Positions 411 to 11,295 are shown, counted from the first letter of the stretch. The stretch is 64,000 nt of DNA from an uncultured Pseudomonadota bacterium (GCA_963781395.1 CAWAFO010000006.1:29554-93553); one strand, 5' to 3'. Numbers and translations: made by a program. The notes: generated by a model not told the origin, from the sequence alone.

Positions 411-1469
411 ATGACCCAACCTGTCAATTCCGCCGGGCCTCCAGGCGCGCGCAGCGCCGTGGTTGCCACCTCCGCATCCCGCCGCACTCCTGCACCTGCA
501 ACCGTCGCACGCGCGACGTCGGCGCTGGAGGCCAACGACCTCCTGCTTTTCGCGCGCGTGGTCGACGAGGGCAGCTTCTCGCGGGCCGCGGAACGCCTGC
601 ACGTCCCGAAGTCGACGGTGTCGCGGCGGGTCGCCGTGCTCGAAGCCGAGCTCGGCGAGCGCCTGCTGCTGCGTACGACGCGCAAGCTGACGTTGACCGA
701 TTTCGGGCGCGCGGTGCTCCAGCACGCGCACCACGTGGCCGAGGACGTCGCTGCCGCCGCGGCGCTGGCGCAGCATCGGCAGGCCGAGCCCAGCGGACGG
801 CTGCGCGTGTCGATGCCGGGCGACATCGCCAACCTGATTCTCGCCCCGCTGCTCGCCGACTTCGCGATCCGCTATCCGGCGATCACGCTCGAGGTCGATC
901 TCACCGCGCGCTTTGTCGACCTGATCGGCGAGAACTACGACGTGGCGATCCGTGTCGGCGATCTGGCCGACGACGCCTCGCTCGCCGCGCGACGCGTGGC
1001 GACGTTCACCGGCAGCATCTGCGCATCGCCCGCCTATCTCGCGCGCCGCGGCGTGCCCTCCGAACCGGAAGCATTGATGGAACACGACGCGCTGCTCGCG
1101 ATCGGCAAGGACGGCGAGGCGCTGCCGTGGATCCTGCGGCGCGGCGAGGCGCTGTGGCAGGGCGTCCCGCCGGCGCGCGCGCGCGCCAATTCACCGGGCC
1201 TGCTGATGCAGCTGGCGCTCGGCGGCGCCGGCATCACCGTGGTCAACGACGGCTTCGCGCTGCCGCACATCGAGCGCGGCGAGCTCGTGTCGCTGCTGGC
1301 CGACTGGACGCTGCCGCCCACACCGATATGGGCGGTCTTTCCGGGGCGGCGCCTCATGCCCGCGCGCACTCGCGTGTTCCTCGATGCGCTCGAGGCGAAA
1401 TTCGCCGGGCCCGAGTGCCGCGCGGCCGAAGCGCAGATCGCGCGCACGAAACCGCGCCGCAACGGCTGA
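411..1469 (+). CDS. LysR family regulator (start may be further downstream)
   Basis: HTH LLLFARVVDEGSFSRAAERLHVPKSTVSRRV, GRLRVSMP substrate domain; divergent from azoR. Confidence 0.9.
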   Translation: MTQPVNSAGPPGARSAVVATSASRRTPAPATVARATSALEANDLLLFARVVDEGSFSRAAERLHVPKSTVSRRVAVLEAELGERLLLRTTRKLTLTDFGRAVLQHAHHVAEDVAAAAALAQHRQAEPSGRLRVSMPGDIANLILAPLLADFAIRYPAITLEVDLTARFVDLIGENYDVAIRVGDLADDASLAARRVATFTGSICASPAYLARRGVPSEPEALMEHDALLAIGKDGEALPWILRRGEALWQGVPPARARANSPGLLMQLALGGAGITVVNDGFALPHIERGELVSLLADWTLPPTPIWAVFPGRRLMPARTRVFLDALEAKFAGPECRAAEAQIARTKPRRNG

Positions 1470-1487: not shown

Positions 1488-2384
1488 TCAGCCGCTGGCG
1501 GCGCGCGGCACCTCGGCACCGACGAGCAGCTCGTCGACGATCGCGAGGAATCCCGCCACCACGCGCGCGTGACGCCGCTCCTGCAGCGTGACGACGTGGG
1601 TCGTCGTGCGCACGTCGGCGTCGGCGATGGCCAGCACCGCGAGGCGCGGGTCGGGCACGAACTCGAATTCCGACACCACGGCGATGCCGAGCCCGCGGAT
1701 CACCGCTTCGCGCACCGCTTCGCGGCTGCCGACCTCCAGCGAGATCGTCGGCGCAAGGCCCAGGCGCCGCAGCGCATCCTCGAGCGCCTTGCGCGTGGTC
1801 GAGCCCTTCTCGCGCATGACGAGCGGCTCGTCCGCCAGCTCGGCGAGCGCGACGCTCGCGCGGCGGTCGAAGCGATGCCCGCGCGCCACGAACACCACCA
1901 CCGGATGCGACCGGTAGGGCACGAAATGCAGGACGGGATCGGGCGCGAACTGCGCGAGCACGGCGACGTCGGACTCGTAGTCCTTGAGGCTCTTCACCGT
2001 CTCCTCGGAATTGCCGACGTTGATCGTCACCTCGATCTGCGGATAGCGGGCGCGGAACGCGGCGATCATCTCCATCACGTGGTAAGGGCCGACGGCGCCG
2101 ATGCGCAGGTTGCCGGTGCGCAGCGCGCCGCTGTCCTTGAGCAAATGCACGGCGTCCTCCTCCAGGCCGAAGATGCGCTGCGCGATCGCGAAGAGCTCGC
2201 GGCCGACGTCGGACAGCTCGAGGCGATGGCCGCGGCGATGGAAGAGCTCGACGCCATAGCTCAGCTCGAGCGCACGCACCTGGCTCGTGACCGTCGGCTG
2301 GCTGACGTGGAGCTGGCGCGCGCCGGCCGTGAAACCGCCGTAGCGGGCGGCGGCATAGAACGACCGGAGTTGCGCGAGCCTCAT
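1488..2384 (-). CDS. LysR regulator, phosphonate-catabolism-associated type
   Basis: MRLAQLRSFYAAARYGGFTAGARQLHVSQPTVTSQV; VGNSEETV..L.DYESDVA resembles aminoethylphosphonate-associated LysRs; context. Confidence 0.85.
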   Translation of the reverse strand: MRLAQLRSFYAAARYGGFTAGARQLHVSQPTVTSQVRALELSYGVELFHRRGHRLELSDVGRELFAIAQRIFGLEEDAVHLLKDSGALRTGNLRIGAVGPYHVMEMIAAFRARYPQIEVTINVGNSEETVKSLKDYESDVAVLAQFAPDPVLHFVPYRSHPVVVFVARGHRFDRRASVALAELADEPLVMREKGSTTRKALEDALRRLGLAPTISLEVGSREAVREAVIRGLGIAVVSEFEFVPDPRLAVLAIADADVRTTTHVVTLQERRHARVVAGFLAIVDELLVGAEVPRAASG

Positions 2385-2399
2385 AGACGCACTCTATGA
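2381..2399. promoter_or_regulatory. LysR T-N11-A dyad operator overlapping the LysR start codon
   Basis: TCATAGA-CGCAC-TCTATGA perfect 7-bp inverted repeat between the divergent LysR and Fe-ADH genes. Confidence 0.65.
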
Positions 2400-2488
2400 T
2401 ACGCGTCGAAAAATGTATTGGTTCAATGGGGAAGGCGCGCCGATACTCGCGCACGGCACCCAATGACGCGACGCGGGGGAATCTTGCG

Positions 2489-3583
2489 GTGAAGCAGCCT
2501 CGGCCCTGGACGTTCCACAATCCCGTCGCGGTGACATTCGGTTCCGGGTGCCTCGCGCAACTGCCCGCGCGCATCGGCGACCGCCGCACCGTCGTCGTCA
2601 CGTTTCCGGAGGCCGACGGACTCGGCCTGCACGCGCGGATGCGGGACCTGCTCGGAGACCGCCTGCGCGGCGTCGTCGCCGACATCGCGCCCAATCCCGA
2701 CGTCGCCGAGTTGCGCACACTGTATGCGCGCTTCTGGCGCGACTTCGCCGATTGCGAAGTGGTCGTCGCGCTCGGCGGCGGCAGCGCGCTCGATACGGCG
2801 AAGGCGCTCATCGTACGCACCGCAAACGGCACGTTCGGCGAGCTCGAGTCGGCGCTGGCGGGCGGCGCGGCGTGGACACCCTCGTCCGCCAAGTCGCTGA
2901 TCACCGTGCCGACCACCGCGGGCACCGGCAGCGAAGTGACGCCCTGGGCGACCGTGTGGGATCGCGCGTCGCAGCGCAAGTTCTCGCTGCATCTCGACGC
3001 GACGTGGCCGGAGGCGGCCTTCGTCGACCCCGACCTGACTGCGACGCTGCCGGCGTCGGTGACGCTGCAAAGCGGACTCGACGCCCTGTCCCACGCGCTC
3101 GAATCGATCTGGAACGTCAACGCCAATCCGGTCTCCGACGCGCTCGCCGTCAACGCGGCGAAGTCGATGCTGGAGACGCTGCCGTCGCTGATGCGCAACC
3201 TCGGCGACCAAGGGCTTCGCGCGCGCGCGTCGCTGGCGGCGTTGCAGGCCGGTCTCGCGTTCTCCAACACCAAGACCGCGCTCGCGCATTCGCTGTCGTA
3301 CGAGATGACGCTGCGCTACGGCCTGCCGCACGGCATCGCCTGCTCGTTCACGCTGCCGCTGGTGCTCGAGCGCGCGCTCGGGCACGATGCGCGGCGCGAC
3401 GCCACGCTGGCGCAGGTCTTCGCGTGCCCGCTGGCAGAGGCCGGCGATTGGCTGCGGGCATTCCTCGAGTCCCTCGGGGTCAGCCCGCGCTTCGAAAGTC
3501 ATGGCGTGCCGGTGGAGGAATCGGCGCGGATGATCGCGGACGCGCTCGAGGGTCCGCGCGGGAGGAATTTCATCGGCGCCTGA
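2489..3583 (+). CDS. Iron-containing alcohol dehydrogenase, phosphonate-associated (PsrA-like)
   Basis: WTFHNPVAVTFGSG, GGGSALDTAK, PTTAGTGSEVT, LDALSHALES, LAHSLSY, LPHGIAC metal ligands; GTG start after GGGGGA. Confidence 0.85.
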   Translation: MKQPRPWTFHNPVAVTFGSGCLAQLPARIGDRRTVVVTFPEADGLGLHARMRDLLGDRLRGVVADIAPNPDVAELRTLYARFWRDFADCEVVVALGGGSALDTAKALIVRTANGTFGELESALAGGAAWTPSSAKSLITVPTTAGTGSEVTPWATVWDRASQRKFSLHLDATWPEAAFVDPDLTATLPASVTLQSGLDALSHALESIWNVNANPVSDALAVNAAKSMLETLPSLMRNLGDQGLRARASLAALQAGLAFSNTKTALAHSLSYEMTLRYGLPHGIACSFTLPLVLERALGHDARRDATLAQVFACPLAEAGDWLRAFLESLGVSPRFESHGVPVEESARMIADALEGPRGRNFIGA

Positions 3584-3643
3584 ACGCGGCCGGTGCGGTG
3601 CAACCACGACGAGGGCACGACGCCCCACTATGGAGGAGCAGCG

Positions 3644-4951
3644 ATGGATGCAGTGATGACGGGTTCACCGGGCGGCGGCGCCGCCTCGCAGGATCGCAGC
3701 CGCAGGCTGGTGACGATCGCCAGCCTGATCGGCACTACCGTGGAGTGGTACGACTTCTTCCTCTACGGCACGATCACCGGCCTCGTGTTCAACAAGCTCT
3801 TCTTCCCGGCGAACGACCCGTTCGTGTCGACGATGCTCGCGTACACGGTCTATGCGGTGGGATTCGTCACGCGTCCGGTCGGCGGCATCCTGTTCGGCCA
3901 CTTCGGCGACAAGATCGGCCGCAAGCCGTTGCTGGTGCTGACGCTGCTCATCATGGGCATCGCCACGTTCCTGATCGGACTCATCCCCACCTACGCGCAG
4001 ATCGGCATCGCCGCACCGCTGCTGCTCCTGCTGCTGCGATTGCTGCAGGGCATCGGGCTCGGCGGCGAATGGGGCGGCGCCGTGATCATGTCGTTCGAGT
4101 ACGCGCCGAAGGCGAAGCGCGGCTTCTACACCTGTTGGCCGCAGGTCGGGCTGGCAGTGGGGCTGTCGCTCGCCACCGGCGTCGTGGCGCTCCTCACCAA
4201 GACGCTCTCGGATGAAGCGTTCCTGGCATGGGGATGGCGGGTCGCGTTCATGGGGTCGATCGTGCTGGTCGGCGTGGGACTTTTCGTTCGTCTGAAGATC
4301 CTCGAGACCCCCGAATTCGCGAAGATCAAGGATGCGCAGAAGATCGCGCACGTGCCGGTCGGCGAAGTGATCCGCGACTACAAGAAGAACGTGCTGCTGG
4401 GCTGGGGCGCACGCTGGATCGACGGTGTGGTGTTCAATGTCTACGCCGTGTTCACGATCGCGTATCTGGTCGGCACGGTGAAGCTCGACAAGACCGGCGT
4501 GCTGCTCGGCATCTCGGCGGCGGCGTTCATCCTCATCTTCACCATTCCGATCGCCTCGGCGTGGTCCGATCGCGTCGGCCGGCGCACGGCCTATGGTTGG
4601 GGGGCCTTGGCCTGCGGACTCGCCGCGTTCCCGCTGTTCTGGATGATGCATTACGGCGGCAGCGTGGTGCTGGCGGGCGCCGCGATCATCCTCGGACTCG
4701 GCATCATCTACGCCCCGGTCTATGGTCCCGAGGCCGCGCTGTTCTGCGAGTTGTTCGACACCCGGGTGCGCTACTCCGGAATCTCGGTCGTCTACCAGGT
4801 TTCGGGCATCGTCTCGAGCTCGATCACGCCGCTGATCGCCACCTCGCTGCTCAAGGCGGGCGACGGCGCACCCTGGTGGATAGCCGCGTACATGTGCGTG
4901 ATCGGCATCATCAGCGCCGTGAGCACGTACTTCATGCGTCGCACTTTCTGA
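3644..4951 (+). CDS. MFS transporter, metabolite:H+ symporter (shikimate-like) family
   Basis: GTTVEWYDFFLYG, GHFGDKIGRK, LQGIGLGGEWGGA; GGAGGAG RBS. Confidence 0.9.
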   Translation: MDAVMTGSPGGGAASQDRSRRLVTIASLIGTTVEWYDFFLYGTITGLVFNKLFFPANDPFVSTMLAYTVYAVGFVTRPVGGILFGHFGDKIGRKPLLVLTLLIMGIATFLIGLIPTYAQIGIAAPLLLLLLRLLQGIGLGGEWGGAVIMSFEYAPKAKRGFYTCWPQVGLAVGLSLATGVVALLTKTLSDEAFLAWGWRVAFMGSIVLVGVGLFVRLKILETPEFAKIKDAQKIAHVPVGEVIRDYKKNVLLGWGARWIDGVVFNVYAVFTIAYLVGTVKLDKTGVLLGISAAAFILIFTIPIASAWSDRVGRRTAYGWGALACGLAAFPLFWMMHYGGSVVLAGAAIILGLGIIYAPVYGPEAALFCELFDTRVRYSGISVVYQVSGIVSSSITPLIATSLLKAGDGAPWWIAAYMCVIGIISAVSTYFMRRTF

Positions 4952-5122: not shown

Positions 5123-5184
5123 TTCGCTTGAACACTTCGTGAACAATACAACATTTAACTAACATAATCATACGGTTGTCGTGC

Positions 5185-5200
5185 TGGCTCAGGGCTTGCT
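5185..5200 (+). promoter_or_regulatory. sigma54 -24/-12 promoter
   Basis: TGGCTCAGGGCTTGCT; GG at 5186-87 and GC at 5198-99, canonical spacing. Confidence 0.7.
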
Positions 5201-5237
5201 ACTAGTCCCGCAGAACAAATTTCCAGGGAGTATCGCC

Positions 5238-5996
5238 TTGAAGAACTTCAGCCGCCTCGCCATCGCGGCAGCATTCGCCGTGTCGACGACCGCGTTCGCC
5301 GACACGATCACGCTCACGTACAACAGTTCGATCTACGCGCATGGCAGCGACGGTGTGAATCTCGCCGGAACGCCGCCGCCCCCCCATCCGTCCTCGTACC
5401 CGTATACCAGCGTCGGCGCCGGTGAGTTCGGCGCGCACGACGTCACCGTCACCGGCAGTCTCACCACGGCGAATCTGGTCGACAGCTCGAGCGACTTCTT
5501 CCTGTATTGCTATGACCTGTTCCAGACGATTGGTCCAGGCGGTACGTACACCTACACCGTCAACTACACCGGCGCCCTCGCGCACACGCTCGACTTTCTC
5601 GGCGCGGTCAACTCCGTGCTGAACGGTGCCAGCGGCACGGATCAGTTCGCGTGGCTGCATCCGACCACCACCGGCGAGTCGGCCGCCATCCAGCTCGGCA
5701 TCTGGGAAAGCCTCTACGACAACGATCCCAACTTCAGTCTCGCTACAGGCTCGTTCCAGGCGAGCGGCCTCGACGCGGGGACTGCGACCGAATATGCACA
5801 GTTCCAAGCGGCCGTGTCGACAACCGCCAGCCTTCCGCTGCCATTCACGATGGTTCTGGAAAGCGCCACCAACCAGGACCAGATCACCGGCTTGCGCCCG
5901 AGCCAGCGCAACTTCACGCCCGAGCCCGGCTCGCTGGCACTGCTCGCCGCCGGCCTCATCGCCGCAGGCGTGGCGCGCCGCAAGCGCAAGGGCTGA
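5238..5996 (+). CDS. PEP-CTERM sorting domain protein
   Basis: Signal peptide (LKNFSRLAIAAAFAVSTTAFA), C-terminal TPEPGSLALLAAGLIAAGVARRKRKG; TTG start after GGGAG. Confidence 0.9.
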   Translation: MKNFSRLAIAAAFAVSTTAFADTITLTYNSSIYAHGSDGVNLAGTPPPPHPSSYPYTSVGAGEFGAHDVTVTGSLTTANLVDSSSDFFLYCYDLFQTIGPGGTYTYTVNYTGALAHTLDFLGAVNSVLNGASGTDQFAWLHPTTTGESAAIQLGIWESLYDNDPNFSLATGSFQASGLDAGTATEYAQFQAAVSTTASLPLPFTMVLESATNQDQITGLRPSQRNFTPEPGSLALLAAGLIAAGVARRKRKG

Positions 5997-6023: not shown

Positions 6024-6059
6024 CGGCGCGCCTCGGCAACGAGGTGCGCCGATTTTTTT
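6024..6059 (+). terminator. Rho-independent terminator
   Basis: CGGCGCGCCTCG-GCAA-CGAGGTGCGCCG followed by a T run. Confidence 0.75.
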
Positions 6060-6133
6060 GTGCAAACGGATTGCCCGCTGACACACGGCGTCCGGGCGTA
6101 AGCGGGAACCGTGGATCTACATGGGGGCATGAC

Positions 6134-6420
6134 GTCATCTCCGCGAAAGCGCGGGATCCATGAATTGATGCGGCGTCATACCTGGATTCCCGCATTCGCG
6201 GGAATGACGGCGCGCAAGGGCGACGCCGACGCCCAACGACGTCATCCCCGCGAAAGCGGGGATCCATGAATTGATGCGGCGTCATACCTGGATTCCCGCA
6301 TTCGCGGGAATGACGGCGCGCAAGGGCGACGCCGACGCCCAATGAGGTCATCCCCGCGAAAGCGGGGATCCATGAATTGACGCGGCGTCATACCTGGATT
6401 CCCGCATTCGCGGGAATGAC
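6134..6420. repeat. REP/BIME-like tandem array, three ~106-bp units, six palindromes
   Basis: GTCATCCCCGCGAAAGCGGGGATCCA and inverted TGGATTCCCGCATTCGCGGGAATGAC; units start at 6134, 6241, 6347 with near-identical linkers. Confidence 0.9.
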
Positions 6421-6480
6421 GGTGGTGCTTGGACGATCGGGCGCGTGCGATTTGCAGATCGGGCCCAGGCCGCGTCGGGC

Positions 6481-7524
6481 CTAGGGCGCGTCGGAAATGT
6501 CCGTGGCGAAGTGCACGCCGGCTGACTGCACCCGCAGGCGCGGATCGTGGGACTTCACCAGCACCGGCCGTCCCTCGAGGATCTCGAAGCAGCGTTCCAG
6601 CGTCTCGTCCTCGAGCCTCTGCATCGCCTCGGCCGTGTAGAACGTGAGGTGCGGCCACAGCATCACGTTGTCCATCGCGTGCAGCGAGGCCAGCGGATGC
6701 CCGGCCCTGGCGAGCGGCTCCTGGCCGTAAACGTCGAGTCCGGCGCCGGCGATGCCCCCGGCCTCGAGCGCGCGCACCAGCGCGGCCTCGTCGACGATCG
6801 CGCCGCGCGACACGTTGATCAGCGTCGCCGACGCCTTCATCGCCGCGAGCTCGCGCTCGCCGATGAGATGGCGCGTATCGTCGTTCAGCACCGAATGCAC
6901 CGACAGGACGTCGCAGCGCGCCAGCATTTCGCAGAGGTCGTCGTGCTTGTGCACGCCGGCGCGCATCATCTGCGCGCCATCGACATGCGGGTCGTAACCG
7001 AGCACGCGCATGCGGAAACCCTGCCCGGCCATCCGCGCCACGTTGCGGCCGATGCGGCCCACGCCGACGAGGCCGAGCGTCTTGCCCGCGAGATCGCTGG
7101 CCAGCCAACGCGCAGTGGGCCACGCCCAGCCGCGCGCCTCCATCTCGCGCTGCAGCGGCTTGAACTTCTTCGCCAGCGCGAGCATCAGCGCCAGCGCTCC
7201 CTCGGCCACCGTCTCCTCGGCGTATTCGGGCACGTTGACGACCGGAATGCCGCGGCGCCGCGCGGCATCGATGTCGATGGCGTCGATGCCGACCCCATAT
7301 TTGACGATGCCCTTGAGCCGCGGCGCGGCGTCGATCACGCGCGCCGGGATCTGCGTGTAGCACATCAGCAGCAGGTCGGCGTCGCGCAGCTCGGCGGCGA
7401 GTGTGTCGGTGCTGGTCGCATCGGGCAGCACCACAAGCGTCAGCCCACGCTCGCGCAGCACGCGGTCGACGTGAGGCATCTCCAGCTCGGCGTCGGTGCG
7501 CACCACCTTCATCGGCGCGATCAT
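6481..7524 (-). CDS. D-2-hydroxyacid dehydrogenase family protein (candidate PbfF-type HAEP racemase)
   Basis: KYGVGIDAID, GLVGVGRIG, INVSRGAIVDE, DVYGQEP, PHL; directly downstream of pbfA. Confidence 0.85.
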   Translation of the reverse strand: MIAPMKVVRTDAELEMPHVDRVLRERGLTLVVLPDATSTDTLAAELRDADLLLMCYTQIPARVIDAAPRLKGIVKYGVGIDAIDIDAARRRGIPVVNVPEYAEETVAEGALALMLALAKKFKPLQREMEARGWAWPTARWLASDLAGKTLGLVGVGRIGRNVARMAGQGFRMRVLGYDPHVDGAQMMRAGVHKHDDLCEMLARCDVLSVHSVLNDDTRHLIGERELAAMKASATLINVSRGAIVDEAALVRALEAGGIAGAGLDVYGQEPLARAGHPLASLHAMDNVMLWPHLTFYTAEAMQRLEDETLERCFEILEGRPVLVKSHDPRLRVQSAGVHFATDISDAP

Positions 7525-7594: not shown

Positions 7595-8962
7595 TCATGC
7601 GCACGCCGCGATCGCGGCCTCCACGATGTCGAGCGCGCGGTCGACGTCGGCGACGTCGATGGTGAGCGGCGGCGCCAGCACCAGCACGTTGCCCTGCCCC
7701 ACCTTGAACGAGAGACCGGCGCCAAGACAGTGATAGAGCACGCGCTCCGCCACGTCGCGCGCAGGCGCACCGGTGGCCGGATCGACGAGCTCGACACCGA
7801 GCAGGAGGCCGATGCCGCGCACGTCGCCGACGACGGGATGCCGCCGCTGCATCGCGCGCAGCCGTTCCTGCGCATGCGCGCCCAGCGTGCGCGCGCCCTC
7901 GAGCAGCCGCTCCTCCTCGATCACGGCGAGCGTGGCGAGGCCCGCGGCGCATCCGAGCGAGCTCTTTTCGTGCGTGTAGTGGCCGAGCGCGCGGTCGGCG
8001 GCGACGTCGAGGCCCTCGCGCGCGATGAGCGCCGCCATCGGAAACACGCCGCCGCCGAGCCCCTTGCCCAGCACCACCATGTCGGGAACGATGCCGTAGT
8101 GCTCGAATGCGTACATCGTGCCGGTGCGCCCCAGCCCGATCGGGATCTCGTCGAGGATCAGCAGCGCGCCGTGTCGGTCGCACGCGCGGCGCAGCGACTC
8201 GTAGTACGCGCGCGGCGGAATCTGCACGTCGGTCGAGCGCACGGTCTCCACCACCACCGCGGCGACATCCTCCTCCTTGCCGAGCACATAGTCGACATAG
8301 TCGGCGCAGCGCGCATTGCACGTGCCGCCGCAGCCGAAACGGCAGCCACGCGGATCGCACGGCTGCACGTGCTCGGTGCCGGGCAGCAGCGGACCGATGT
8401 CACGGCGGAACAGCGCCTCGCCGCCGACCGAGATCGCGTCGAGCGACGCGCCATGGAAGGCGTCCCACATCGACACCGTCTTGTGGCGCCCGGTGGCGAT
8501 GCGCGCGAGCTTCAGCGCCATGCCGATCGCGCTGGTGCCGCCGGGCGCGAACAAGACCTTGGCGAGCGGGCGCGGCGCCAGCTCGACCAGCCGGCGTGCC
8601 AGCGTGACGGCCGCTTCGTTGGTGAATCGTCGCGGCGAGAACGGCAGCGTGTCGAGCGCCTGCTTGACCGCGGCCACCACGCGCGGATGGCCATGACCGA
8701 CCTGGTGCACGCTGTTGCCGTGGAAATCCATGTAGCGCCGGCCCTCGACGTCTTCGAGCCAGATGCCGGACGCCGACGCGAGCGCGTTGAAGCACGGCGT
8801 GGACAGCGACTGGTGCAGGAAGTACTTGGCATCCTCCGCGAGCAGCGCGCGCGTCGCCGGCGCGAGATGCTCGGCCTCCCATTGCTTGCGCAGCGGCGAC
8901 AGGTTGACGTCGCCCTCGGCGGCGAGATCGGCATGCGGCGCGGACGGTGTCGGCTTACGCAT
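7595..8962 (-). CDS. pbfA: (R)-1-hydroxy-2-aminoethylphosphonate ammonia-lyase, class III PLP fold
   Basis: EGDVN, FLHQSLSTPC, YMDFHGNSVHQVGHGHP, LPFSPRRFTNE, DAFHGASLDAISVGGEA, GHYTHEKS, LSFKVGQGNV match PbfA as I recall it. Confidence 0.8.
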   Translation of the reverse strand: MRKPTPSAPHADLAAEGDVNLSPLRKQWEAEHLAPATRALLAEDAKYFLHQSLSTPCFNALASASGIWLEDVEGRRYMDFHGNSVHQVGHGHPRVVAAVKQALDTLPFSPRRFTNEAAVTLARRLVELAPRPLAKVLFAPGGTSAIGMALKLARIATGRHKTVSMWDAFHGASLDAISVGGEALFRRDIGPLLPGTEHVQPCDPRGCRFGCGGTCNARCADYVDYVLGKEEDVAAVVVETVRSTDVQIPPRAYYESLRRACDRHGALLILDEIPIGLGRTGTMYAFEHYGIVPDMVVLGKGLGGGVFPMAALIAREGLDVAADRALGHYTHEKSSLGCAAGLATLAVIEEERLLEGARTLGAHAQERLRAMQRRHPVVGDVRGIGLLLGVELVDPATGAPARDVAERVLYHCLGAGLSFKVGQGNVLVLAPPLTIDVADVDRALDIVEAAIAACA

Positions 8963-10349
8963 GTGCGCTGGCCGCCGCCGGCTCGCCGAGATCGAAGAAC
9001 AGCCCGGTCATGATCGCGAGGCCCTGCCGCGCCACCGAACCCAGCAAGTGCTCGTCCGGCGCGTGCTGCGAGCAGCCGGGATAGGAATGGGGTATCCACA
9101 CGGTCGGCAGCGACAGCACTTCGGCGAAGCAGTCGTTGGGCAGCGAGCCGCCGAGGTTGGGCAGGATGGCCGGACGCGTGCCGGTGGTGCGCTCGACGGA
9201 GGCCGCGACGCGTTGCACCCAGGGATGCTCGGGGGACAGCCGCGTCGCGCGCATCGTTTCGCTGCGCGCCGCGGCGACCTTCACCGCCGCGAATCCGCGC
9301 GCATCGAGATGCGCACGAATCGCCAGGATGAACGTCGTATGGTCGCAGCCCGCGACGAACCGCACCTGCAGGTGCGCCGTCGCGCGCGGCGGGATCGCGT
9401 TGACCGGATGCTCGGGGTTTCCGGTCTTGAAGGCGAGCACTTCGAGCGCGTTCCAGCCGAACACCCGCTCGGCGGGCGTGAGCCCGGGCTCGCCCCATCC
9501 CGGGTCGATGGCAGGCCCGGCAGGCTCGCCGGGCTCGATGTCGGCGAGCGCGCGACGCACGGCGTCCGGAATCGGCGGCGGACGCAATCCGTCGACGAGG
9601 ATGCGCCCGCGCGCGTCGACCAGCGACGCGATGGCATTGGCGAGAATCGTCCCGGGGTTCGCCAGCAGGCCGCCCCAATTGCCCGAATGATGCGCGCCTT
9701 CGCGCAATTCGAGCAGGAGGTCGAAGTTGAATGCGCCGCGCGAGCCGAGGAACAGCGTCGGCCGTTCGGCGCGAAGACGCGGTCCGTCCGAGGCGATGAG
9801 CACGTCGGCCGCGAACAGGTCGCGATGGCGCTCGCACAGCGCGCGCAATCCCGGCGAACCCGTTTCCTCGCCCATCTCGAGCAGCAGCTTGACGTTGAAG
9901 CCGAGCGCCCCGCGTGCGGCCAGCACGCATGCGAGCGCGGCGAGGTTGATGCTGTGCTGCCCTTTGTTGTCGGCAGTGCCGCGCCCATACCAGCGGTCCT
10001 GCTCGACCACCACCTGCCACGGCGACAGGCCTGCGCGCCATTGCGCGTCGTAGCCGAGCACGACGTCGCCATGTCCGTAGGTCAGGATCGTCGGCGCCCC
10101 CTGGCGCTCGGCGCGCTCGGCGAACAGGAACGGCGCACCGCCCGCCGGATTGTCCAGCAACCGCCACGCGAAACCCATCGCCGCCAGCGCCGGCGCGATC
10201 TCGCGCTCGAGGTAGGCGACGAGCTCGTCGCGTGCGCCGTCGCGCTGGCTCTCGGTATGGCAGGCGACGCGCCGCCGCAGCTCCGCGAGGAAGTGACCGG
10301 CGTCGAACCAGGCGAGCGAAGCGTTGATCGTGTCGGCGCGTGTGGTCAT
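8955..10349 (-). CDS. M20 family metallopeptidase/amidohydrolase
   Basis: YGHGDVV, GRGTADNKGQH, EMGEETGS, SDG, QHAPDEH; stop overlaps pbfA start. Confidence 0.9.
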   Translation of the reverse strand: MTTRADTINASLAWFDAGHFLAELRRRVACHTESQRDGARDELVAYLEREIAPALAAMGFAWRLLDNPAGGAPFLFAERAERQGAPTILTYGHGDVVLGYDAQWRAGLSPWQVVVEQDRWYGRGTADNKGQHSINLAALACVLAARGALGFNVKLLLEMGEETGSPGLRALCERHRDLFAADVLIASDGPRLRAERPTLFLGSRGAFNFDLLLELREGAHHSGNWGGLLANPGTILANAIASLVDARGRILVDGLRPPPIPDAVRRALADIEPGEPAGPAIDPGWGEPGLTPAERVFGWNALEVLAFKTGNPEHPVNAIPPRATAHLQVRFVAGCDHTTFILAIRAHLDARGFAAVKVAAARSETMRATRLSPEHPWVQRVAASVERTTGTRPAILPNLGGSLPNDCFAEVLSLPTVWIPHSYPGCSQHAPDEHLLGSVARQGLAIMTGLFFDLGEPAAASAHA

Positions 10350-10527
10350 CGCGGCGAGAATACCGCATGCGCGCCCCGCGGCGCCATGCGTGTGCGCGCG
10401 GCCGGAATCGTCCCTGCGCCGGGCGCTATGATCCATCATCGCGGAGCGTCACCGCCGGCTGCGTGCGCCGCGTGCGCACCCTTGCCGGCCCGGCGCGGCG
10501 CGCCGACCACCACGACATGCCTCCACC

Positions 10528-11295
10528 ATGATCTATGCACTCTATTACTGGCCCGGCATCCAGGGCCGCGGCGAATTCGTCCGCCTCGCTCTCGAGGATG
10601 CCGCTGCGCGCTACGTCGACATCGCGCTCGTCCCGCAGCGTCGCGGCGGCGGCGTCGCCGCGCTCGAGCGCTACCTCGACGGCGACGACATCGCGCGCCC
10701 GCCATTCGCGCCACCCTTCCTCGTCGCCGCGCGCGAGGTGATCGGGCAGACCGCGAACATCCTCCTCTTCCTGGGCGCGCGACTCGGACTCGCGCCGCGC
10801 GACACCGCCGGACGGCTGTGGGCCCACCAGCTGCAGCTGACGATCGCCGACTGGGTCGCCGAAGTGCACGACACGCACCATCCGCTGGCGAGCGGGATGT
10901 ACTACGCGCAGCAGAAGCCCGCCGCACGCCGGCGTGCGAAGGCGTTCGTCGACGAGCGCATGCCCAAGTTCCTCGATTACTTCGAGAAGGTGCTCGCGCG
11001 CAACACCGCGCCGGGCCCGTGGCTGATCGGCCGCCGCGCGACGTATGTCGACTTGTCGCTGGCGCAGATGGTCGCCGGCCTGCGCTATGCGTTTCCCCAC
11101 GCATGCGCGGCGCTGCTGCCTCGGTATCCGCGCGTCGTGGCGGTGCACGACGCGGTGTTCGCGCGGCCGCGCATTGCGCGCTACACGGCCTCGAAGCGGC
11201 GGCTCGCATTCAACAACGACGGCATCTTCCGCCACTATCCCGAACTGGACCTCAAGGCGCCCACCCGAGCCACGCGCAAAGCCCGCGGCACTTGA
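10528..11295 (+). CDS. Glutathione S-transferase family protein
   Basis: LYYWPGIQGRGEFVRLALE, PPFAPPFL, IGQTANIL, TYVDLSL. Confidence 0.85.
   Translation: MIYALYYWPGIQGRGEFVRLALEDAAARYVDIALVPQRRGGGVAALERYLDGDDIARPPFAPPFLVAAREVIGQTANILLFLGARLGLAPRDTAGRLWAHQLQLTIADWVAEVHDTHHPLASGMYYAQQKPAARRRAKAFVDERMPKFLDYFEKVLARNTAPGPWLIGRRATYVDLSLAQMVAGLRYAFPHACAALLPRYPRVVAVHDAVFARPRIARYTASKRRLAFNNDGIFRHYPELDLKAPTRATRKARGT

Follow-up and report, generated by a model that had tools for sequence, protein, structure and literature searches.

How might a bacterium use 2-hydroxyethylphosphonate (HEP) through a set of genes that has no enzyme for cleaving the C-P bond beside it? HEP is thought to be abundant among natural phosphonates, and it was not until 2026 that dedicated pathways for degrading it were described. 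The question is raised by a locus in a 64,000-nucleotide stretch of DNA from an uncultured Pseudomonadota bacterium (hereafter the window), in which genes for a LysR-family regulator, a metal-dependent alcohol dehydrogenase (ADH) and a major facilitator superfamily (MFS) transporter lie near a pbfA operon. An earlier interpretation made from the sequence alone (the sequence-only reading) offered two answers: that HEP and HAEP are both channelled into a distant PhnX or PhnYA, or that HAEP serves only as a nitrogen source, with the resulting aldehyde being reduced and exported as HEP. We favour a form of the first, with a probability of roughly 0.65, in which the lysR-ADH-MFS genes constitute a self-regulated HEP catabolism module that imports HEP and oxidizes it to phosphonoacetaldehyde (PAA), the pathway being completed in trans by PhnY and PhnA.

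Organization of the locus

The LysR, Fe-ADH and MFS genes are all present where the sequence-only reading had placed them, within positions 1488-4951 of the window; lysR is divergent from the ADH gene, and the MFS gene follows downstream of the latter. The features of this region and of the neighbouring operon are as follows.

1488..2384, minus strand: LysR-family regulator, probably of the AEP-catabolism-associated type, 298 aa (Pfam HTH_1 and LysR_substrate; TIGR03339)
2383..2397: LysR recognition box ATAGACGCACTCTAT, a T-N11-A dyad (ATAGA-N5-TCTAT) that overlaps the start codon of lysR
2414..2428: second conserved box TGTATTGGTTCAATG, some 31 bp away from the dyad
2418-2423: -35-like TTGGTT, overlapped by the second box
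2442-2447: -10-like GATACT, 18 nt after the -35-like element
2489..3583, plus strand: PhpC-type (TIGR03405) metal-dependent ADH, 364 aa, predicted HEP dehydrogenase / PAA reductase
3593..4951, plus strand: MFS transporter, probably of the metabolite/H+ symporter (MHS) type, predicted HEP importer, 452 aa (start GTG 3593) or 435 aa (start ATG 3644)
5181-5996, plus strand: gene for a secreted, PEP-CTERM-sorted protein that has a promoter-like site and a terminator of its own
6131-6422: 106-bp tandem repeat, 2.7 copies
6481..7524, minus strand: PbfF-like protein of the 2-hydroxyacid dehydrogenase family (PF02826 and PF00389), candidate HAEP racemase, last gene of its operon
7595..8962, minus strand: pbfA (NF049939, 686 bits, cut-off 525)
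8955..10439, minus strand: M20 metallopeptidase of the PRK07079 type (NF005478, 746 bits), first gene of the pbfA operon, its true start probably being ATG 10349

The ADH reading frame is open from an ATG at 2396 (2396-3583), and because residue 40 is where the family match starts and orthologues have their starts near GTG 2489, the gene most likely occupies 2489-3583; the MFS start lies 10-60 bp beyond its stop. The proposal that this arm converges on the pbfA operon needs amending, since the gap between the MFS stop (4951) and the pbfF stop (6481) is filled by the PEP-CTERM protein gene and the tandem repeats, and the two therefore do not meet directly.

The order of pbfA followed by a PF02826 gene recalls the PbfA-PbfF module (Zangelmi 2021; Ruffolo 2025, PMC12366243), in which PbfF was defined. 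The PbfF-like protein carries the PF02826 domain, is encoded next to pbfA and is orthologous to alphaproteobacterial proteins, being 60-63% identical over 97% of its length to the protein encoded immediately after pbfA in Shinella zoogloeoides, one of the species in which PbfF is listed, and in Sinorhizobium sp. RAC02; other plasmid-borne homologues are all below 46% identity. Its assignment as a racemase is a prediction. PbfF has been reported only in the Hyphomicrobiales and Rhodobacterales, within phnWYA or phnWX clusters (PMC12366243), whereas here it occurs in a betaproteobacterium, apart from phnWYA and in an operon in which an M20 peptidase gene comes first.

The alcohol dehydrogenase

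The ADH scores 490.1 bits on the TIGR03405 model (Phn_Fe-ADH; cut-off 423.7), with all 355 model positions covered (1-355). The PhpC-type catabolic enzyme of Paraburkholderia fungorum oxidizes HEP to PAA in vitro using NAD+ and Zn2+ and, when coupled to PhnX, releases phosphate (PMC13576164); the earlier statement that PhpC-like Fe-ADHs interconvert PAA and HEP is therefore correct, having been demonstrated for a catabolic homologue within TIGR03405. Both proteins belong to this family and share the PF00465 and ADH_Fe_C fold, and all of the published metal and HEP residues are kept in the ADH described here. Residues K164, D198, H202, T263, H267, Y271, H281 and R357 do not vary among 23 aligned homologues, which include ADHs from within phnA-ADH-phnY and ADH-phnX clusters. 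The metal ligands D198, H202, H267 and H281 correspond with identical spacing to P. fungorum Asp191, His195, His260 and His274, and the phosphonate contacts K164, T263, Y271 and R357 to Lys157, Thr256, Tyr264 and Arg349, the correspondence being made by numbering rather than by direct alignment, with a constant offset of +7 for seven of the eight; R357 (P. fungorum R349) sits in a conserved C-terminal RG(R/K)NF motif.

The closest solved structure by sequence is the sulfoacetaldehyde reductase of Bifidobacterium kashiwanohense (6jko/6jkp, E 2.6e-42), which resembles the ADH in its fold, its metal site and its use of a C2 aldehyde with an anionic group. That enzyme acts on a sulfonate, however, and has Phe where the PhpC enzymes and the ADH here have Tyr (Y271), while Gln replaces one of its metal-binding His residues (PMC13576164).

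The ADHs that are linked to MFS genes form a clade of their own, whose sister is an ADH adjoining phnY-phnA-phnR (locus L063). The separateness of this clade, a transporter type unlike those of other clusters and an identity of only 60-65% to cluster-embedded homologues would all suit an enzyme acting on a different hydroxyalkylphosphonate, such as a substituted or longer-chain HEP analogue, and yielding a product that is not a substrate of PhnY. We consider this improbable, as the predicted substrate contacts are all unchanged, the sister enzyme lies next to phnY-phnA-phnR, and the locus offers no other candidate for a downstream enzyme.

The regulator and its binding sites

The best NCBIfam family for the regulator is TIGR03339 (phn_lysR), at 336.9 bits, 4 bits below the cut-off of 341.1, and the next-best family scores 165 bits, half of that value. 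Orthologues with 45-67% identity lie beside TIGR03405 ADH or phn clusters in at least 14 loci. The recognition box ATAGACGCACTCTAT has a single exact occurrence in the 3.7-Mb genome, and its position is conserved among orthologous loci of other species and genera, with the dyad arms and position being kept while the spacers vary at five of these (L043, L045, L066, L067 and L020); variants of the dyad are present at L016, L042, L060 and L062. The looser pattern ATAG-N7-CTAT occurs at seven sites in the genome against 6.8 expected and is not rarer than chance, so the evidence for the box lies in its positional conservation and not in its rarity. The second box, TGTATTGGTTCAATG, is also unique in the genome and is conserved in L042-L045, L018 and L061; together with the -35-like and -10-like elements, it is the putative site of activation and promoter for the ADH and MFS genes. 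These family matches and the conserved box agree with the sequence-only description of a phosphonate-type LysR with a dyad operator beside an Fe-ADH and an MFS rather than an ABC transporter.

A genome-wide search for the LysR boxes revealed none near phnA and phnY or near the M20-pbfA operon. The absence of a box near phnA and phnY counts against the HEP reading.

The transporter

The MFS protein exceeds the cut-offs of Pfam Sugar_tr and MFS_1. Of the NCBIfam families, TIGR00883 (metabolite/H+ symporter) matches it best (402 bits, below the cut-off of 443), and a shikimate-transporter model scores 338 bits, likewise below cut-off. The characterized members of the metabolite/H+ symporters (TC 2.A.1.6) are importers. 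We suggest from gene context that its substrate is HEP. In a metagenome scan none of the 80 closest homologues (45-61% identity) adjoins a TIGR03405 ADH or a phn-type LysR, and the several nearest ones that were examined adjoin a GMC oxidoreductase; the substrate assignment thus draws on context in one genus only. Searches of the literature for HEP in combination with MFS and catabolism returned nothing relevant, and reports of the MHS-type MFS family in phosphonate uptake were not found.

C-P cleavage genes elsewhere in the genome

The sequence-only reading had called for a search of the genome for phnX, phnY, phnA and C-P lyase. Contig C2 carries a complete AEP cluster (phnW/phnSTUV/phnR/phnA/phnY) in which the genes for PhnA (620 bits) and PhnY (881 bits) are neighbours. 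A single full-identity match was obtained in the genome for each of PhnW, PhnA and PhnY, and each lies on C2, in agreement with the observation that the window contains no phnW, phnX, phnY or phnA; the AEP cluster is at least about 200 kb from the ADH locus even were contigs C2 and C6 adjacent. In this 3.7-Mb genome, which is 93% complete, no match over cut-off was found for PhnX, PhnJ (C-P lyase) or a PhnZ-type HD protein, and the best matches to PEP mutase (106 bits, cut-off 320) and Ppd (39 bits, cut-off 312) fall far short. PhnX, C-P lyase and PhnZ were accordingly each rejected as the cleaving step.

The missing PEP mutase, Ppd, PhnX, PhnJ and PhnZ-type HD protein also make a biosynthetic role for the ADH unlikely, and we rejected it for want of PEP mutase and Ppd matches over cut-off. 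The Streptomyces enzymes PhpC, FomC and DhpG are PAA reductases that have the reaction and the Pfam family in common with the ADH, but they sit with pepM and ppd in biosynthetic clusters, and neither gene scores over cut-off here.

The side-by-side PhnA and PhnY in the AEP cluster lend support to the first of the earlier options, in which HEP and HAEP feed a distant cleaving enzyme. They weigh at the same time against the second, in which HAEP would be a nitrogen source by way of PbfA, which releases ammonia, and toxic PAA would be reduced by the ADH and expelled as HEP by the MFS protein. Although the equilibrium of the PhpC reaction favours HEP and the locus itself lacks a C-P cleaving enzyme, the genome does encode a C-P route, the transporter is of an H+ symporter type whose characterized members import, homologous ADHs are coupled to obligate uptake systems (PhnD-type ABC, TRAP), the ADH-MFS genes have a regulator and operator that are not shared with the pbfA operon, and an unrelated gene with its own terminator separates the two operons. 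Export of HEP thus seems very unlikely.

Distribution and context of homologues

The lysR-ADH-MFS order is also found in genomes G014 and G021 and in the more distant G017, whose MFS protein is 74% identical. The arm lies beside the pbfA operon only in G014, from a near-identical sister species, the G021 contig stopping short of the pbfA region. More widely, ADH homologues with 55-65% identity occur in phnA-ADH-phnY, LysR-PhnDCE-ADH-PhnX and LysR-ADH-TRAP-PhnX clusters. Wherever a transporter gene was present in the contexts examined, it was of an uptake type (PhnD-type ABC, TRAP, organophosphate-antiporter-type MFS or MHS-type MFS), and within the host genus the ADH is combined with four uptake systems, namely MHS, TRAP, PhnD-type ABC and the AEP cluster's own transporter.

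An ADH over cut-off is encoded in 11 of 301 genomes of the order, and all 11 also encode PhnA or PhnX, as against 61 of the 301 overall, a co-occurrence that involves related genomes and a genus in which PhnA is common even where the ADH is lacking (G118). The hydrolase is adjacent to the ADH in seven of the 11 and unlinked in four, the host included; PhnA was likewise found in each of five further ADH-positive congeners.

These patterns bear on the possibility that the ADH is a general aldehyde reductase of the PsrA type, or that it acts on some other small anionic alcohol imported by the MFS protein, its proximity to pbfA being coincidental. Genetic evidence ties PsrA of Burkholderia cenocepacia K56-2 to the detoxification of lipid-peroxidation aldehydes (Naguib et al. 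2022, PMC9113575): peroxidation markers rise when the gene is deleted, and E. coli YqhD complements the loss. PsrA has been described as a homologue of PhpC that closely resembles the P. fungorum enzyme and, as here, has no linked C-P cleaving enzyme; the closest MFS homologues outside the genus are, moreover, paired with GMC oxidoreductases and IclR regulators and not with phosphonate genes, and adjacency to the pbfA operon is confined to G014. PsrA, compared here by its description, nevertheless has no phosphonate genes nearby, whereas a phosphonate-type LysR, an importer and the pbfA-pbfF operon adjoin the present ADH, and the function of PsrA was assigned from mutant phenotypes, its enzymatic activity never having been measured. 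The phosphonate contacts are all kept in the ADH, including the Tyr that separates PhpC from sulfoacetaldehyde reductase, its homologues lie beside PhnD-type phosphonate-binding proteins, PhnX and PhnA/PhnY, and PhnA or PhnX accompanies it in every ADH-positive genome sampled. A dedicated importer and a substrate-responsive regulator also suit the catabolism of an external compound better than the detoxification of an internal aldehyde. A PsrA-like role is accordingly unlikely, even if it is the strongest of the competing explanations. The whole TIGR03405 family has now been named after PsrA in NCBIfam.

A proposed route for HEP

Under the preferred reading of HEP uptake and oxidation, LysR would bind the box at its own start codon and the second box over the -35 region and, with HEP or PAA as effector, would activate the divergent ADH-MFS operon. 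The MHS-type transporter would bring in HEP by proton symport, and the PhpC-type dehydrogenase would convert HEP and NAD+ to PAA, a thermodynamically uphill step that could be driven by the removal of PAA through PhnY, which turns it into phosphonoacetate, and PhnA, which converts phosphonoacetate to acetate and phosphate. Both would be supplied from the AEP cluster on C2 and not from the ADH locus, with phnYA presumably expressed during growth on HEP. The M20-pbfA-pbfF operon would independently yield PAA from HAEP, and since both sets of genes would give PAA, the locus may hold two routes that feed one distant pair of C-P cleaving enzymes.

Set beside the HEP clusters of Piazza et al. (Protein Sci 2026; PMC13576164), the locus is a variant, and it departs only modestly from the published pathway. 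In both, a LysR gene and a transporter gene lie beside the dehydrogenase gene, and the P. fungorum genome, like that of the host here, has a separate AEP cluster (PMC13576164). The published clusters by definition have phpC linked to phnX or phnYA (PMC13576164) and use binding-protein-dependent transport, whereas the present locus has an MHS-type MFS transporter and neither phnX nor phnY-phnA, and must rely on the phnYA of another contig; the lack of such linkage counts against the HEP reading. Current understanding is not overturned by this arrangement. If the HEP reading holds, however, a regulator, the HEP dehydrogenase and an importer can together form a minimal module that borrows the C-P cleaving enzymes of the AEP pathway, and HEP degraders will be undercounted by surveys that accept phpC only where it is linked to phnX or phnYA. 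The family-wide name PsrA, with its connotation of aldehyde detoxification, may similarly mislead annotation. MHS-type MFS and TRAP systems are nominated as candidate phosphonate importers. More tentatively, and at somewhat less than even odds, the MHS-type transporter could be a dedicated HEP:H+ symporter, and orphan TIGR03405 genes, possibly including some annotated as PsrA, could encode HEP dehydrogenases that use unlinked PhnYA or PhnX.

Source of the DNA

The host is a soil betaproteobacterium. No RNA runs carrying the stretch were found among the sequencing runs searched; five metagenome runs of soil or rhizosphere, each from a different study, contain at least half of its words.

Gene organization and host

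The locus appears, on sequence grounds, to be a split variant, served by a major facilitator superfamily (MFS) transporter, of the 2-hydroxyethylphosphonate (HEP) catabolic clusters published in 2026. The genome (3.72 Mb in 11 contigs, 93% complete, ~68% GC) has a 16S rRNA with ~91% identity to Burkholderiaceae copies, and the window stretch is present in soil and rhizosphere metagenomes; the host is thus a betaproteobacterium from soil, belonging to Burkholderiales in the broad sense. Family scans and an analysis of third-position GC confirmed the three genes named in a sequence-only reading (LysR, Fe-ADH and MFS), and gave the following order.

411-1469 (+), second, unrelated LysR
1488-2384 (-), phosphonate-type LysR
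2489-3583 (+), iron-containing alcohol dehydrogenase (Fe-ADH; ORF open from 2396)
3593/3644-4951 (+), MFS transporter
5181-5996 (+), secreted PEP-CTERM protein (separate promoter-like site, strong terminator)
6131-6422, tandem repeat, 2.7 copies of a 106-bp unit
6481-7524 (-), pbfF-like gene
7595-8962 (-), pbfA
8955-10349/10439 (-), M20 peptidase

The ADH arm had been described as converging on a pbfA operon; both are present, but ~1.5 kb of unrelated DNA separates them.

The dehydrogenase

The ADH scores 490 bits on TIGR03405 (cut-off 424), an equivalog whose current NCBIfam name is 'iron-containing alcohol dehydrogenase PsrA'. In Paraburkholderia fungorum, a catabolic homologue of PhpC converts HEP to phosphonoacetaldehyde (PAA) with NAD+ and Zn2+, and releases phosphate when coupled to PhnX; catabolic phpC-type genes mostly accompany phnX or phnY-phnA, and the highly similar B. 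cenocepacia protein PsrA, whose activity was never measured, has no linkage to phosphonate genes (Piazza et al., Protein Sci 2026, PMC13576164). The metal ligands of the P. fungorum enzyme are D191, H195, H260 and H274, and its HEP contacts K157, T256, Y264 and R349 (PMC13576164). The window ADH has K164, D198, H202, T263, H267, Y271 and H281 at a constant offset of +7, with R357 within the conserved C-terminal RG(R/K)NF motif, and none of the eight residues varies among 23 aligned homologues, some of them encoded within phnA-ADH-phnY and ADH-phnX clusters. The closest solved structure is sulfoacetaldehyde reductase (6jko/6jkp), as it likewise is for PhpC (PMC13576164). The only assayed catabolic member of TIGR03405 is a Zn-dependent HEP dehydrogenase, while the family is named for a B. 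cenocepacia protein of unmeasured activity; PsrA as a name for the whole family may mislead annotation.

Regulatory sequences

The phosphonate-type LysR scores 336.9 bits on TIGR03339, the NCBIfam LysR family associated with aminoethylphosphonate (AEP) catabolism, which is 4 bits below the cut-off and twice the next family's score. Within the 104 bp lysR-ADH intergenic region, ATAGACGCACTCTAT (2383-2397) is a T-N11-A dyad overlapping the lysR start codon, and TGTATTGGTTCAATG (2414-2428) overlaps a -35-like hexamer, with GATACT 18 nt further on. Each exact sequence is single in the genome; the dyad as a loose pattern occurs about as often as chance predicts (7 sites observed, 6.8 expected). Among orthologues of the locus in other species and genera, the dyad arms and their position beside the lysR start are kept, with differing spacers, in five (L043, L045, L066, L067 and L020), dyad variants lie at the lysR start in four (L016, L042, L060 and L062), and L042-L045, L018 and L061 keep the second box. 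It is because of this conservation of arms and position, not because of rarity, that we take the dyad at the lysR start to be functional. The second LysR (411-1469) is YafC-like, 352 aa long, converges on the phosphonate-type LysR across a 19-bp gap, and shows conserved synteny in the near-identical sister species alone.

A genome search placed neither box near phnA/phnY or 5' of the M20-pbfA operon, where the region 10350-10527 lacks a LysR box of the phosphonate type. That region holds a GTGCGC-N5-GCGCAC dyad; no regulator gene adjoins the operon upstream, the divergent gene (10528-11295) being GST-like.

The pbfA-pbfF operon

In Shinella zoogloeoides and Sinorhizobium sp. RAC02, pbfA is immediately followed by a gene that shares 60-63% identity with the PF02826 gene 3' of pbfA in the window; all remaining matches are below 46%. 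Since S. zoogloeoides is among the PbfF hosts (PMC12366243), the window gene is a PbfF orthologue, in a betaproteobacterium and so beyond the Hyphomicrobiales and Rhodobacterales from which alone PbfF has been reported (PMC12366243). Identity this high between classes points to horizontal transfer of pbfA-pbfF.

C-P cleaving enzymes and related clusters

The sequence-only reading had offered two routes, one in which HEP and HAEP (the substrate of the PbfA route to PAA) feed a distant PhnX or PhnYA, and one in which the aldehyde is reduced and exported as HEP, and had proposed searching the genome for C-P cleaving enzymes. That search located PhnA (620 bits) and PhnY (881 bits), each single-copy and adjacent on a second contig, C2, in a cluster of phnW / phnS-T-U-V / phnR / phnA / phnY / NaPi-related / phn_DUF6, and supports the first route; PhnX over cut-off, PhnJ (for C-P lyase) and a PhnZ-type HD protein were absent from the genome. 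PEP mutase and phosphonopyruvate decarboxylase are also absent from this 93% complete genome, and a biosynthetic role of the ADH is therefore unlikely.

An even sample of the order comprised 301 genomes, almost all of them 90% complete or better. The ADH exceeds its cut-off in 11, every one of which encodes PhnA or PhnX, against a background of 61/301; the naive hypergeometric P of 1e-8 exaggerates the association, since related genomes are not independent and the genes are physically linked in seven cases. PhnA is present in all of five additional ADH-positive congeners.

About a third of 24 sampled species of the genus have the ADH, in at least four architectures: LysR-ADH-MFS, of the metabolite/H+ symporter (MHS) type, in the window genome, G014, G021 and the more divergent G017; LysR-ADH-TRAP, with PhnX in G016 (230 bits, cut-off 220) and no PhnX identified in G236; PhnD/PhnE-ADH in G305; and phnA-ADH-phnY within an AEP cluster in G011. 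Further loci across the order read LysR-PhnDCE-ADH-PhnX, LysR-ABC-phnA-ADH-phnY, and ADH followed by an organophosphate-antiporter-type MFS. Every examined ADH context having a transporter gene has one of uptake type, and the MHS-linked ADHs group as a single clade, sister to an ADH that adjoins phnY-phnA-phnR. The G016 cluster (L042, contig C16, 9190-15507) is a self-contained LysR / ADH / DctQ-DctM-DctP / PhnX set and is predicted to be a TRAP-served HEP cluster; a limited literature search found no report tying a TRAP system to phosphonate catabolism.

Reduction of the aldehyde and export of HEP is disfavoured by the type of the MFS, the pairing of ADH homologues with uptake systems, the separate regulation of the ADH-MFS and pbfA operons, and the PhnYA encoded in the genome. 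That the ADH has a PsrA-like or other non-phosphonate role we consider unlikely, although its HEP activity is only predicted and the hydrolase is unlinked to it, as in 4 of the 11 genomes, this one included (on another contig, or 128 kb or 1.8 Mb away). The closest MFS homologues outside the genus also speak for such a role, as they never adjoin a TIGR03405 ADH (80 metagenomic loci, 45-61% identity) and the several closest examined lie with GMC oxidoreductases and IclR regulators. In metagenome contigs L070-L091, which hold the closest of these (55-61% identity), a unit of IclR regulator, GMC oxidoreductase (~540-570 aa) and MHS transporter recurs, probably an uncharacterised pairing of an importer with an alcohol-oxidising enzyme.

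Proposed mechanism

The likeliest mechanism is import and oxidation of HEP with PhnYA acting in trans. The LysR, with HEP or PAA as effector, would switch on the ADH-MFS operon; the MFS would bring in HEP and the ADH oxidize it to PAA; PhnY and PhnA would pull the unfavourable ADH equilibrium forward, releasing phosphate and acetate; and the adjacent PbfA-PbfF would channel HAEP into the same pool of aldehyde. That the two feeders are regulated separately agrees with the 'tug-of-war' reasoning of Piazza et al. (PMC13576164), by which a HEP dehydrogenase co-expressed with enzymes that make PAA would turn PAA back into HEP. In G011 the ADH lies inside the PhnR-controlled phnA-phnY unit, an arrangement that hints that PhnR may respond to a shared intermediate.

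The intervening DNA

The ORF at 5181-5996 (271 aa) begins with a signal peptide, ends in a PEP-CTERM sorting signal (..PEPGSLALLAAGLIAAGVARRKRKG) and matched no Pfam or NCBIfam family. Upstream is an AT-rich region holding a promoter-like site (5140-5168) and downstream a strong terminator (6024-6051). Its identity in sister species is only 75-80%, against 93-99% for neighbouring genes. The 106-bp repeats, between this gene and the pbfF stop, match at 97%, contain internal inverted repeats in each copy, and are REP- or MITE-like.
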